A stretch of DNA of 64,000 bases from Octopus vulgaris. Its lineage: Eukaryota. The stretch's first letter is position 1. Every line of letters begins with the position of its first letter. Shown piece by piece: positions 10,825 to 33,189 of this stretch. A program made the translations under genes and the position numbers. The notes under the pieces are model-generated. The model made no database searches. It was not told where the DNA came from and saw only the letters and a program-made list of their open reading frames with translations. The DNA is taken from positions 11,532,001 to 11,596,000 of the forward strand of contig OX597815.1 in the NCBI GenBank assembly GCA_951406725.2. Reading direction: 5' to 3'.

Positions 10825-11023
10825 ATATAAGAGAGTGGTCACTATGTGGCTCACTCTAGCACTAGTAATAGATCCAATAGGTTTCAACCACAAAAATACA
10901 TGTTTCCCATGAAAGTCAGTACGACATTCATGGGAAACATGTATTTTTGTGGTTGAAACCTATTGGATCTATTACTAGTGCTAGAGTGAGCCACATAGTG
11001 ACCACTCTCTTATATTTATTTTT
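10817..11023. repeat. Perfect 97-bp inverted repeat with 13-nt loop
   Basis: 10817-10913 is the reverse complement of 10927-11023 as read by eye. Confidence 0.9.
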
Positions 11024-11181: not shown

Positions 11182-11640
11182 GAAGGGAGGAGGAGAATTT
11201 GGAATATCGCGACGTGGTGGTTGTAAAGCAATACACACAAACAAACACACACACACATAAACTAAAAGAAGGAAAACACACACAGTTTACAGAGTTTTAA
11301 TATATTTTCAAAAATAAGTGAAAGAGTATTGTGTTTGTCAACCGGTTTCGCTTTCGTTAATCATGACATTGAAGTTATTGCATTTTCATATTTTCTTAAG
11401 ATTTTAGTCTATGTTGTGTATGGATGTCTGAGAGTTTGAGAATGAATCAACAAGTAGAAAAATCCAACGGGAGAAAATTGGTGATCGTTGTTATTGGGGA
11501 CAGGGAGGGTACTTTCTCTTTTTGGGGGGAGGGGATAAATAAATGTACAAAAACCCAAAAGCTAAAGTAATGAGATGAAATATGTACAGTAATGGGTATG
11601 TGTACATGAATTAAAATATATACTAAGATCATAGTTCGTT
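11178..11640 (-). mobile_element. Penelope-like element 3' UTR fragment (A3-U8 HHR family)
   Basis: Homologous to the UTR downstream of the GIY-YIG pseudogene (26968-27350) and to 12322-12592 inverted. 3' end abuts (TA)n. Confidence 0.7.
11336..11368 (-). ncRNA. Minimal hammerhead motif, A3-U8 variant
   Basis: Minus strand: TGTC-ATGATTA-AC GAAA GC-GAAA-CCGG-TT-GACA. Stem I TGTC/GACA; stem II carries one mismatch in this copy. Confidence 0.65.
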
Positions 11641-11775
11641 ATGTTTTCATATTTAGGCATAAAGATACAGATTACCCAATAATAACACAGTTCTATATCT
11701 AAGAGATGAGGAATTATGTACATTATTTACATTATTTACATTTGACGGATATTTGACCTCATCTTGTATGTTGTT

Positions 11776-11821
11776 AACACAACATTTCGGCTGATATACC
11801 CTCCAGCTTTCGTCAGGTGTC
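11776..11821 (-). ncRNA. Minimal hammerhead motif (left arm)
   Basis: Minus strand: GACAC-CTGACGA-A-AGCTG gagggtatat CAGCC-GAAA-TG-TT-GTGTT. Confidence 0.7.
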
Positions 11822-12229: not shown

Positions 12230-12275
12230 GACACCTGATGAAGGCTGGAGGGTATATCAGCCGAAGTGTTGTGTT
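12230..12275 (+). ncRNA. Minimal hammerhead motif (right arm, GAAA>GAAG)
   Basis: GACAC-CTGATGA-A-GGCTG gagggtatat CAGCC-GAAG-TG-TT-GTGTT. Confidence 0.7.
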
Positions 12276-12321: not shown

Positions 12322-12588
12322 TACCCAATAATAACGATCACCAATTACTTCCGCTTAGATTTTTCTACTTGTTGATTTCTTCAGAAACTCGCAAAACTCT
12401 GCACGCAACGTGGACTAAAATCTTCTTAACAAAAAAACAAAAAACAAACGAAAGTATAGGTACTTCAATAGCATTATTAGTGAAAGCGAAAGCGGTAGAC
12501 AAATACAATACTCTCTTTCACTTATGAAATATATTAAATATATATATTAAAACTATGTAAAATGTGTGTGTGTGCATTTGCCTTCTTT

Positions 12589-12592
<4 letters not shown>
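12322..12592 (+). mobile_element. Penelope-like 3' UTR fragment with degenerate A3-U8 HHR (12469-12501)
   Basis: Inverted homolog of about 11250-11500. Reads ATTATTA-GT GAAA GC-GAAA-GCGG-TA-GACA; ends at (TA)n. Confidence 0.65.
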
Positions 12593-12652
<60 letters not shown>

Positions 12653-26049: not shown

Positions 26050-26290
26050 AATTGTTCTCTATTTTTGTATGAACAAATATTTTTTAATTAAAAGTCCTTG
26101 TATAGTAATTGTTTCTTTGTAACGATTAGCAGAAGCGAAACCGGTGGACAAACACATTATAATATATATTGAAAATATATTAAAGCAATGTAAAGTGTGT
26201 GTGCATTTTCCTTCTTTTATTTTATATATACATTTTTTGCACTACAACACACCCCGTGCGGATAGTCGAAATTCCTCCTGTTTTATTAGC
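26050..26290 (+). mobile_element. PLE 3' UTR fragment with degenerate A3-U8 HHR (26118-26150)
   Basis: TGTA-ACGATTA-GC AGAA GC-GAAA-CCGG-TG-GACA, followed by sequence homologous to 12500-12592. Confidence 0.6.
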
Positions 26291-26841: not shown

Positions 26842-27022
26842 CAATGAAAACAAAATAACCCTCAAATAACGGACATTTATCGACAAATGCATTCTTGAGA
26901 ACTGATTTCACCTTTCTGTAAGAGCGCTATATATATATATATATATATATATAAATATATATATATAAGAAAGTAAAAGAGGAAAATACGCACACTTACA
27001 TACTTTTGATATATTTTTTAAT

Positions 27023-27057
27023 ATATCGACCGGTTCTGCTGTCGCTATTCATGATAT
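27023..27057 (-). ncRNA. Minimal hammerhead motif, A3-U8 variant, in PLE 3' UTR
   Basis: Minus strand: ATATC-ATGAATA-GC GACA GC-AGAA-CCGG-TC-GATAT. Perfect stem I and GUC site; GAAA is altered to AGAA in this copy. Confidence 0.65.
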
Positions 27058-27350
27058 TGTGTTTTACTTATTTGAATATATATTTTTTCTTTAGAAGAAA
27101 TTTGGTCCATGTTGTGTGTGATGAAATTCACGAGTGAATGACTTCACAAGTAGATAAATAAAGGGTGGTAATTCTTTGTCGTTATCATTGTTATTGCTGT
27201 GGGTTAGGGAGATAACTGGTCAACTTTCGGTAATGGGTGGGGATTATATATGTGTACAGACAGAGACAAGTTTCAAAAACCTTGTTTAGTGAGGGATTTA
27301 TGTACAGTGATGTAATCGTAAATTGAAATATGTAAAAAGATAAAAGTTGG

Positions 27351-27990
27351 TTATGCGTGCATATTAAGACGTGTTTTGTAATTTTCAATGAAAAAACTTT
27401 CTTTATTTTAACGTTCTAGTTGAGAGATTGCGTCTTTGCACTAGTAGAAAGGGAGGACTGAGAAATTTGGTTTGATGTTACCTCCACATTTGTCTATATG
27501 TTCACTGAGACGAATTTGTCTGTGTTGCGGGAAGCGGATTTGCTCTTTATGTAGAGTGGTTCTCTTTCTTAAGGTCATACTCGTTTGTCCAATATAGTGG
27601 TGTCCCTAACCCGAGCAGGTTATGACATAAATTAGGTTCTCTGTGGCACAAGTAAAACTAGTTTTAATTGTGAACCTCTGTCCTTGTTTGAAAAGGAAAT
27701 CCGAGCCATCAAGCAGGTTGGGGCAGGTTCCACAGTTTGGGCATCCACATTAATCAACCGTTGGTTTCGTGGTTGTTTTGTAAAACTTCGTATTTGTTAG
27801 TAGTTTCTTTAGCGATTTGTCTTTCTTTTTTGCATTTGATGAGTTTGTGTGTTTTCAGGATGTCGTTCATTTTTGGATCTCTAGTTACTATAATAAGAGT
27901 TTGCACAATAGTGTTGAATGCTTTACTCTTTCTGGGGTTGTGTGTTTATATAAATATTAATGCTTTGAGTTGAGGTGTGGTGTTATGTTT
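27351..27990 (-). pseudogene. PLE GIY-YIG endonuclease pseudogene
   Basis: Manual translation: ..CGCPNCGTCPNL..FTCATENLIYVITCSG*GHHYIGQTSMTLRKRTTLHKEQIR..LSEHIDKC..KESFFIENYKTRLN. Several stops and one frameshift. Confidence 0.9.
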
Positions 27991-27994
27991 TGTT

Positions 27995-28094
27995 NNNNNN
28001 NNNNNNNNNNNNNNNNNNNNNNNNNNNNNNNNNNNNNNNNNNNNNNNNNNNNNNNNNNNNNNNNNNNNNNNNNNNNNNNNNNNNNNNNNNNNNN
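27995..28094. other. Assembly gap (100 N)
   Basis: Run of N. Confidence 1.
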
Positions 28095-28766: not shown

Positions 28767-29646
28767 TCAGTAGTTTTATTTTTATAGCGTGCTTTCACTT
28801 CACTACCGAGCGCAGCTCTGTGTGCCTTGTGATTTGTTGTGATGCTCTGATGGTTATTGTATGGAAAGTGTTCTGCGTAGGATGTGTGCAGTGCCTAGTA
28901 GTGCAATTTTCTGTATGTTATATGTGTTTGTAAGTCCTGGTGTTTTTGTTATGTATTTGTCTGAATATTTTTTTATCATGCCTGATGCACCTACTATGAT
29001 AGGAATTGTTTCTGTGTTTAGATTCCACATTCTAGTTACCTCTATTTCCAGGTCTTGGTATTTTGAGAGTTTCTCCATTTCTTTTAGAGACATGTTGTCA
29101 TCAGCCGGTATTGATACATCAATTAGAAAGCATATTTTCTTCAAGATCTTTGACAACTATATCTGGTCCGTTGTCCTTAATTTTTCTATCTGTGTGTATC
29201 GGCATATCCCAGAGTATGGTTGCTTTCTCGTTTTCTGTGACCTTTTCTGGTGTGTGCCTATACCATCTTTTTTCTGTTGTTATTCCATAATGTTGGCATA
29301 GCTTCCAATGTATGTAGGATCCAACTCTGTCATGTCTGTGAATATATTCCTTCTTAGCCAGGACTGGGCAGCTAGAGATAATATGATTTATTGTTTCTTG
29401 TCCATCTCCACATATTCTGCAGTTACTTGTAATATTTCTTTTCATTACATGTTTTTGGTAATTTCTGGTGGGGAGGCTTAGGTCTTGTGCTGCAATTAAA
29501 AATCCTTCTGTCTCTGCTTTGAGTCCTAAGCTTCTCAACCATTGCTGGGATTTTTCTTTGTCTATTTCTTTTGCGTTTAGTTTAGTGCAGTATTTACCAT
29601 GAAGGGGCTTTTCTTGCCATCGTATTATCATGGTTCGTTGCTGTTC

Positions 29647-29648
<2 letters not shown>
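28767..29648 (-). mobile_element. R4/Dong-like LINE, 5'-truncated (CCHC finger + RLE endonuclease) in (TAA)n
   Basis: ORFs 29119-29772 and 28854-29156: CRICGDGQETINHIISSC..RHD..PDIVV..LIDVSIP..KLSKY..PIIVGA. (TAA)n on both sides. Confidence 0.9.
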
Positions 29649-29704
<56 letters not shown>

Positions 29705-29749
29705 GCTGTTGCTGTTGCTTTTGTTTTTGTAGTTGTTGTTATTATTTTT

Positions 29750-30880
29750 TGGAGTCTGGGCGCTGACGACAAACAAACTGGCTTCTCTGTTGTAGAGGAC
29801 CTTCTAGTCAGAAACTATGATGGCTAATTTCTAGATGTACTTTGCCTGGCAGTGCTACAGGAGGTCGCTACCAGTTCCCTCTACAGCCAGGGATGTGCTG
29901 TCAGACAGACTTGCCCAAGGTGCAGAAAGAGTGAAAATACTGTTCTGCACGCTCTGGTTCAGAGTCCTGGCATTGCTAACGTGTTGGATTATGTCGAACA
30001 GATGTTGCTACTTGTGGGACGGATCTGTTTATCGGCGAGGTCTGTAGTGATGATTGCCTCGTCGTCCTCCTCAAACAGGCAGTCAAGGCAATGTTCCTTT
30101 GCCTGGTAGTGTTAGCGAAATAGGTTTGTGGACAAGGCTGAAAAGCATGAGGGGAGATACATTCCTCTTTGAAGGCGGCGAACTGCCAGTAATGGTAGTA
30201 CGCTGAGTGAAATGATTAGCGGTATTTTGTCTGCCGCTACGTTCTGAGTTGAAATTCCGCCGAGGTCCACTTTGCCTTTCATCCTTTCGGGGACGATTAA
30301 ATAAATACCAGTTACTCACTGGGATCGATATAATCGACTTAATCCGTTTGTCAGTCCTTGTTTGTCTCCCCTATGTTTAGCCCCTTGAGGGCAATAAAGA
30401 AATAAGATACATTCCTCTTTAGCAAAGCTCTCATTCACTTCTTAAAGTTTCACTTAAAAACTAACTTGACGGTGGAGAGGGATGTGCTCTCCTCGAGTGA
30501 GTTAGTTGAAAGGTGGGCGAAATTTGCCTAAATGGTATGACTGGGTGGTACCTAATTAAGCGTAGACATGTGGGTCGGAGAGAATTACTTGAAGTGGGCA
30601 CTTACTCTAGGTGTTCAAGGAACTCCCGGACAAAGGGCTTTCTAATTATCCCTAGAGGTCATCCTGTATCAGAAGGGTTACATCTCTATCATCCACCCAC
30701 TTTTTTCCTGTAAACCTTTCTATTCTGTGCATATGTCCCTTCCCTTTCATTGTATGCCGTTTTTACGTTCATTTTGCTTTCTCTTATTTAATTATTTTAT
30801 CATTTCATTATATATAAAGCGCAACACTTTATAGCTATCTTCCAACTATTCTTCTCCTTTGCCCTGGGGACAAATAAATG
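29750..30880 (+). mobile_element. L1/Tx1-like LINE 3' remnant, interrupted by a SINE
   Basis: CPRCRKSENTVLHALVQS resembles the C-terminal zinc knuckle of L1/Tx1 ORF2; degenerate. Confidence 0.55.
30171..30404 (+). mobile_element. SINE family B monomer with 16-bp TSD
   Basis: TSD AGATACATTCCTCTTT at 30155-30170 and 30405-30420. Confidence 0.9.
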
Positions 30881-31902: not shown

Positions 31903-33189
31903 TCAGTAGTTTTATTTTTTATAGCGTGCTTTCACTTCACTACCGAGCGCAGCTCTGTGTGCCTTAGGTTTGTGCTGTGATTTGTTGTGATGCTCTGATG
32001 GTAATTGTATGGAAAGTGTTCTGCGTCGGATGTGTGCAGTGCCTAGTAGTGCAATTTTCTGTATGTTGTATGTGCTTGTAAGTCCTGGTGTTTTTGTTAT
32101 GTATTTGTCTGAATATTTTTTTATCATGCCTAATGCACCTACTATGATAGGAATTGTTTCTGTTTTTAGATTCCACATTCTGGTTACTTCTATTTCCAGG
32201 TCTTTGTATTTTGAGAATTTCTCCATTTCTTTTAGAGATACGTTATCATCTGCCGGTATTGATACATTAATTAGAAAGCATTTCATGATCTCTGACAACT
32301 ATATCTGGTCCGTTGTCCTTAATTTTTCTATCTGTGTGTATCGGCATATCCCAGAGTATGGTTGCTTTCTCGTTTTCTGTGACCTTTTCTGGTGTGTGCC
32401 TATACCATCTTTTTTCTGTTGTTATTCCATAATGTTGGCATAGCTTCCAATGTATGTAGGATCCAACTCTGTCATGTCTGTGAATATATTCCTTCTTAGC
32501 CGGGACTGGGCAGCTAGAGATAATATGATTTATTGTTTCTTGTCCATCTCCACATATTCTGCAGTTACTTGTTATATTTCTTTTCATTACATGTTTTTGG
32601 TAATTTCTGGTGGGGAGGCTTTGGTCTTGTGCTGCAATTAAAAATCCCTCTGTCTCTGCTTTGAGTACTGGGCTTCTCAACCATTGCTGGGATTTTTCTT
32701 TGTCTATTTCTTTTGCGTTCAGTTTAGTCCAGTGTTTACCATGAAGGGGCTTTTCTTGCCATCGTTTTATCATGGTTAATTGCTGTTCTATTTTTTGTTT
32801 AGATTTCATTTGTTTTATAGCTTTTGTTATTTCTTCATATTCTTCTTCTTGTTCTTCATATTTATTAGGTGGTATGATTTCTTGTTTGTATTTGTCAGCT
32901 TCCTTAAATACTGAGAACAGTTTTTTGTTTTGCTCGTGTTTTGCCGCTATTTGTATCAGTTTTCCTTTCTTCTGAAGTAGATATTTTTGCAGTCCTACGG
33001 TGGTTATTTTATAGTAGTTTTCCAGTTGTATAAGGCCTCTCTACCACCTTCTATATGTTGCATATATAGTCTTTCTATGTCAGATTTTGGGTGATGCATC
33101 CTAGATCCTGTCATTATTTTTCTTGTTTTCCTATCTATTTTGGTCAGTTCATTTAGTGTCCAGTTAAGGATTTTGTAGCTGTAACTACA

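Follow-up and report, generated by a model that had tools for sequence, protein, structure and literature searches.

The motif at 27023..27057 of the window, by which we mean the whole 64,000-nucleotide stretch of Octopus vulgaris DNA analysed here, is best explained as the minimal type I hammerhead that a Neptune-like Penelope family carries, with A3-U8 in place of the C3-G8 pair. In this reading the family's RNA likely cuts itself after GUC, at a slow rate, once two copies have paired by their ACCGGT palindromes, probably with help from the element's own protein. We put its probability at about two in three. Hammerhead ancestry of the motif is near certain, and the evidence supports its assignment as a hammerhead-type sequence that has A3-U8 in its core and lies in the 3' pseudo-LTR of a Penelope-like element (PLE) with a C-terminal GIY-YIG domain.

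The first-pass annotation had listed four diverged copies in the window, at 11336 (-), 12469 (+), 26118 (+) and 27023 (-). All four are found at those places and all retain A3 and U8 (Table 1). Each also carries the damage that had been claimed for it. The 27023 copy reads AGAAC in place of GAAAC, so its core departs from that of a hammerhead at G12 and A13. Since the missing G12 is the general base (PMC6155905), this copy is presumably dead, and on their sequence the window copies as a group are presumably dead relics. Other features are less regular than had been described. The ACCGGT of stem III is intact in three of the four copies and reads AGCGGT at 12469, while the GC/GC stem II of 2 bp is intact at 26118 and 27023 and broken in the other two, with a loop that varies. 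Stem I does differ between copies while staying complementary, with TGTC/GACA at 11336 and ATATC/GATAT at 27023. The single consensus that had been proposed fits one subfamily only, because the stem II loop can be GAAA, GATA, GATT, GAA or ACAA. The window contains 19 matches to GCGAAACCGGT at two mismatches or fewer against a shuffle mean of 3.2, some of them from other repeats.

Table 1. Positions of the hammerhead motifs and of the PLE sequence around them in the window.
Feature	Position	Strand	Details
Minimal type I hammerhead motif, subfamily A1	27023..27057	-	stem I ATATC/GATAT, 2-bp stem II, palindrome ACCGGT; core ATGAATA; G12/A13 swap
Core of the 27023 copy	A3 at 27052 to U8 at 27047; predicted cut after C17 (27028)	-	
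Older subfamily A2 copy	11336..11368	-	stem I TGTC/GACA; core ATGATTA; G10.1>A; GUU triplet
3' UTR remnant around the 11336 copy	11295-11642		
Decayed A2 copy	12469..12501	+	core ATTATTA; G5>U, C15.2>G; opposite orientation to the 11336 copy
UTR remnant around the 12469 copy	12327-12639		
Decayed A2-type copy	26118..26150	+	core ACGATTA; U4>C, G17; 5' truncation at the motif
PLE 'tail' sequence 3' of the 26118 copy	near 26240-26285		
Broken 3' end of PLE ORF	27351..27990	-	RT-EN linker CX4CXXC and GIY-YIG with CCHH
GIY-YIG stop codon	27353-27351	-	
3' UTR / pseudo-LTR with hammerhead	26959..27350	-	blastn 93.9% over 395 nt to L032

Several other elements share the window. Two canonical C3-G8 hammerheads (CTGAYGA, long stem II with an extra base) lie at 11780-11821 (-) and 12230-12272 (+), between the 11336 and 12469 copies. 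They form an inverted pair that probably belongs to another PLE family. There is also a near-perfect, MITE-like inverted repeat of about 180 bp at 10831-11010, and two broken 3' ends of a non-LTR retrotransposon at 28854-29814 and 31912-33040 (-), which have a CCHC knuckle plus a nuclease motif of PD type.

The 27023 copy is physically tied to its host gene. It had been placed about 300 nt downstream of the GIY-YIG stop, and the distance from the stop to A3 is 298 nt. The ORF remnant has an internal frameshift and stops, and it adjoins an assembly gap at 27995-28094. Its minus-strand sequence (27990-27354) still matches the family A ORF L204 at 79-83% by tblastn. The 3' UTR ends in (TA)n about 55-65 nt past the predicted cut site. 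In Pfam, RVT_1 is found just over the cut-off on the family copy L053 and GIY-YIG weakly on a family B copy, and two of the four family proteins searched have no match. Relatives in the protein database, bivalve entries among them, have RT and GIY-YIG domains. PLE sequences also occur in bacterial MAGs and symbiont assemblies (L339-L386), most likely as contamination from the animal host. The family has the traits of EN+ PLEs: a GIY-YIG with CCHH on the C-terminal side of the RT, partial copies in tandem or inverted order, and an optional tail. Inverted pairs of copies occur at L066-L068 and the tail of about 50 nt is present in 14 of 30 copies; both are typical of PLEs. The linker reads CGRPNCGTC. 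A CX2-5CXXC linker is the mark of the Neptune/Nematis group (PMC8557442), and the (TA)n ends of the copies fit Neptune as well. The earlier call of a Neptune-type PLE thus fits, read as Neptune-like from a linker common to Nematis and from the (TA)n ends, with trees that contain no named Neptune references.

A3 and U8 are the state of the family and not chance. Three motif patterns give 224, 893 and 3,092 matches in the genome, and the reversed pattern gives 0 each time; the 893 have the exact A3-U8 core and a stem II of 2 bp. The genome contains at least 3,092 short-stem motifs, nearly all of them non-canonical among the matches listed. When positions 3 and 8 were left free, A3-U8 was found in 89 and a change at one site in 11 of the 100 matches listed out of 201, and the textbook C3-G8 in none of those 100. 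Two further samples of 30 loci were picked without the motif, which frees them of circularity. One was fetched with an EN-UTR query that ends at 27060, before the motif, and takes in the window itself and one duplicated pair. It has A3 and U8 in 29 of 30 loci with one deletion, and in 29 of 30 the motif follows the EN stop at a distance of about 300 nt. The other was fetched by downstream sequence alone. It keeps the 5' half of the motif in 29 of 30 loci, with A3 in 29 of 29 and U8 in 28 of 29. The other core nucleotides of a hammerhead are present in the family too: U4 G5 A6 N7, A9, G12 A13 A14, A15.1-U16.1 and H17.

One can imagine that this pair arose as two chance substitutions and became fixed by drift in a single master element that no longer depended on its hammerhead, so that the motif is a relic. 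All A3-U8 copies of family A fall in one clade, which makes the swap a single event there. The lineage also looks older, possibly extinct, since the best A1 matches average 92.7% identity against 99.4% in family B and 99.5% in family D. A further point for this view is conservation among copies. The first-pass annotation had named the absence of a peak over the motif as a result that would count against its reading, and within subfamily A1 (30 copies) there is none: the motif is conserved no better than its flanks (0.93-0.97). We do not accept this as a test, since copies decay neutrally once inserted and a peak is not expected within a subfamily. The peak does appear between families. There, with one representative per family, the core is 81-100% identical and the flanks drop to shuffle level. 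For A1 against B or D, families found by protein search, core identity is 88% and the flanks are at 0.47-0.56 against 0.52-0.55 in shuffles. The positions fixed between families are U4, G5, A6, A9, G12, A13, A14 and the NUH triplet. A1, A3 and A4 likewise have flanks at shuffle level but retain the core, with stems I of four different yet complementary sequences; the caveat is that the search which yielded A3 and A4 used the motif, so that this part is circular, and that neither is linked to an ORF. These observations already weaken the relic account.

Covariation in stem I points the same way as had been proposed from the window copies. Stem I of 91 distinct A3-U8 copies sorts into complementary classes, among them ATATC/GATAT, GAGTC/GACTC and TAGTC/GACTA, and the third pair forms in 93% of those copies against 71% with shuffled partners. 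In an alignment of 10 rows 96% of cells pair and 6 pairs are changed on both sides; its covariation score is reached by none of 500 shuffles, the rows being hand-picked and related. Stem II is GC/GC here and GU/AC in outgroups. Helix III gives no covariation because it is an invariant palindrome. The motif thus has the three helices around a core, with covariation, that define a type I hammerhead.

The GC-GAAA-GC mini-hairpin is unusually stable, and subfamily A2 has exactly such a 2-bp GC stem with a GAAA loop together with a perfect palindrome. It could be argued that the conserved element works as DNA, with hairpin and palindrome recognised by the endonuclease or by the RT on cDNA. However, the loop varies freely (GATA, GATT, GAA, ACAA, TAAAC, AAT) while the RNA catalytic core is constant, and in family D the stem is 4 bp with a 7-nt loop. 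We consider a DNA element very improbable.

The predicted RNA fold favours a hammerhead that works as a dimer. The predicted minimum free energy homodimer of A1, A2, A3 and B1 is a double hammerhead at -13 to -19 kcal/mol: stem I and the ACCGGT pairing form between the two strands, each strand makes its own stem II, and the cores stay open. For A4, B2 and L291 the minimum free energy homodimer is not the double hammerhead. Single strands fold no more stably than shuffles (z +0.14 to +0.73), and in a 145-nt monomer context stem I has probability 0. Both monomer results are expected of a dimer-type motif and count neither way. There is no obvious loop-loop contact or pseudoknot in the variable loop 2 of 3-5 nt, and PLE minimal hammerheads (min-HHRs) are described as lacking the tertiary contact between loops 1 and 2 (PMC6155905). 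The motif had been called an extremely small hammerhead. The unit is indeed 33-35 nt, but the form predicted to work is a dimer some 66-70 nt long, and natural stems II of 2 bp have been described before. Rfam models give no hammerhead match at gathering score in five loci, and none on the window among the 150 of 343 matches listed. One of the five loci is L104, a retrozyme locus with a canonical core, and since this control is also missed the models evidently miss this class and the scan is uninformative. L104 belongs to a set (L102-L108; G000:C1:20002278-20004542 and many other places) in which C3-G8 hammerheads carry ACCGGT and sit in tandem repeats about 359 bp long, arranged as in non-LTR retrozymes.

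The sister families show how the 3-8 pair could have changed. U3-A8 is found in both B and D: in family B together with a stem II of 2 bp (24 of 30 loci), and in family D with a stem II of 4 bp, in a motif that follows 18 of 21 EN ends. Both are very young by their sequence, with copies more than 99% identical. Family B (L201:1165-3714, L202, L203) retains long open ORFs of 816-850 codons and an upstream ORF, and family D (L243, L247) open ORFs of 784 codons. Family C is old and sister to B. It was read as C3-G8 from two pattern matches, but we dropped this reading, since its 20 copies have U3 in 16, C3 in 2 and G8 in 18 and are mostly U·G. Some B subfamilies are also U3·G8, and the youngest lacks base 1.1 of stem I, the partner of 2.1. 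The B/C clade thus tolerates U3·G8 and an unpaired base by stem I, also in its youngest family, so constraint on this part of the core may be loose.

Foreign PLEs widen the picture. A scan of 128 loci that did not demand pairing at 3-8 gives 27 distinct plus-strand hammerhead matches, and 25 of them pair there (18 C-G, 4 U-A, 1 A-U, 1 G-C and 1 U·G, with 2 weak U-U). The minus strand gives 7 matches, of which 3 are C-G and the others probably arose by chance; single matches should thus be read with caution. The form with a long helix II and an extra base occurs among these distant relatives. One foreign locus, L259, has C3-G8 with an equal 2-bp stem II and ACCGGT, so a short stem II is not tied to the swap at 3-8. 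The Watson-Crick pair at 3-8 is thus A-U for family A, U-A for families B and D, and C-G for the outgroups. In trees built only from tblastn-tiled ORFs of unnamed elements, the C3-G8 elements are outermost, family D comes next, and family A lies beside B and C (support 93 and 100). A distant PLE has a second A3-U8 hammerhead at L291:1969-2000, 83 nt past its stop, with a 6-bp stem II and an ACGT palindrome. Its element is sister to the U3-A8 element L289 with support 100. A G3-C8 hammerhead with a 7-bp stem II and an ATATAT palindrome stands at L311:117-150, just 5' of an 810-codon PLE ORF. The L291 and L311 cases rest on single contigs.

The simplest reading of these sequences suggests descent from C-G to U-A to A-U, and that this happened twice. 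A second A3-U8 hammerhead in a distant PLE counts against drift in one master element, and we regard a drift-fixed relic as quite improbable. A broader claim is that the 3-8 pair is freely exchangeable in nature. PLE hammerheads would then use all four Watson-Crick pairs as well as U·G, A3-U8 would have arisen at least twice from U3-A8 ancestors, and the form with A3-U8 and a 2-bp stem II would be an active unit of 33-35 nt. We advance this only tentatively, at slightly less than even odds. Przybilski and Hammann reportedly found in 2007 that any Watson-Crick 3-8 pair keeps cleavage in two type III hammerheads. A pairwise screen of a single type III hammerhead saw this pair rescued by G-C only, with the other double mutants low (PMC9901934).

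Is the motif then kept for cutting? None of the 100 copies listed, out of 460, begins at the predicted cut site; 97 run on into the motif and the other 3 are another subfamily. Copies extend 55-110 nt past the site, which means that the integrated templates were not cut there. This speaks for a different view, that a hammerhead descendant has been retained as an RNA signal without catalysis, serving for instance in RNA pairing via ACCGGT or in RT-EN binding, with A3-U8 only keeping the fold. It would agree with the lesions that young family B has by the cut site in spite of recent amplification, with the failure of A-U to be rescued in the screen just mentioned, and with the anole PLE, whose hammerhead mutants still insert (PMC11167929). 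However, the nucleotides fixed between families are the catalytic ones, and dimerisation would not need them. The anole hammerhead likewise has no RNA ends at its site, yet it cuts in vitro (PMC11167929). We judge a purely non-catalytic signal unlikely, though it is the most serious of the alternatives.

We therefore prefer the slow dimeric hammerhead, for which weak self-cleavage after C17 is predicted at the odds given at the outset. The ACCGGT palindromes of two element RNAs would pair and a double hammerhead would form, and a slow cut after GUC would follow in the dimer, probably aided by the element's protein. From known hammerhead chemistry we infer that the general base would be G12 and that nucleotide 8 would supply the general acid through its 2'-OH. 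If the 2'-OH has this role, position 8 would need pairing with position 3 more than it needs a given base. The likely role would be to trim tandem read-through transcripts, while insertion seems to use uncut RNA.

A natural A3-U8 adds a state to the pair that is most conserved in the best-studied of the small ribozymes. The series of C-G, U-A, U·G and A-U inside one retroelement lineage supplies matched constructs for core-exchange tests, and it also lets one ask whether PLE hammerheads are kept for cutting. Descriptors based on CUGANGA (as used in PMC8557442) would miss most of the short-stem motifs counted above. If the 3-8 pair is freely exchangeable, thousands of ribozymes per genome would be invisible to CUGANGA searches and to Rfam, and PLE clades reported without hammerheads might have non-canonical ones. 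No report of a natural A3-U8 was found in a literature search whose scope lay outside figure alignments and the largest survey, that of Lünse, Weinberg and Breaker (RNA Biol 14:1499). The motif does not occur as text in the searchable supplements of PMC4209133 (two files) and PMC8557442. Lünse et al. describe small PLE hammerhead variants with a diminished stem III and dimer cleavage (as cited in PMC6765202), and their alignments may already hold A3-U8 or cephalopod examples.

The system is not of a new kind. The literature already has minimal hammerheads in PLEs, cores with U3-A8 and stems II of 2 bp. Perreault et al. 2011 (PMC3088659) describe natural U3-A8 covariation, frequent 2-bp stems II and insertions by position 3, all of which have counterparts here. 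The available part of that paper makes no mention of A3-U8, and its short stems II often come with pseudoknots, none of which were identified here. The anole Poseidon element PAc (PMC11167929) resembles the octopus family in being PLE-encoded, in having no genomic ends at the cut site and in its optional 3' tail. It differs in its Poseidon clade, in a hammerhead that overlaps the ORF start and in a canonical C3-G8; its hammerhead is protein-assisted, partly active with a G3-C8 swap, and dispensable for insertion. The closest match is to the PLE min-HHRs of Cervera and De la Peña 2014 (PMC4209133), as far as the accessible text of that paper goes. These act as dimers with low in vitro activity, which our predicted dimer fold matches, and they include a U3-A8 variant from Schistosoma. 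Like the octopus motif they are type I, lie in the pLTR of an RT and GIY-YIG element, and have a stem I of 4-5 bp, a dimer-forming palindromic helix III, G10.1-C11.1 and a covarying 3-8 pair, in thousands of mostly solo copies. The 6-nt palindrome ACCGGT is as in their small-helix-III variants. The octopus family departs from them in having A3-U8 where they have C3-G8 or U3-A8, a stem II of 2 bp where theirs is 6-8 bp, and no additional base separating position 9 from position 10.1.
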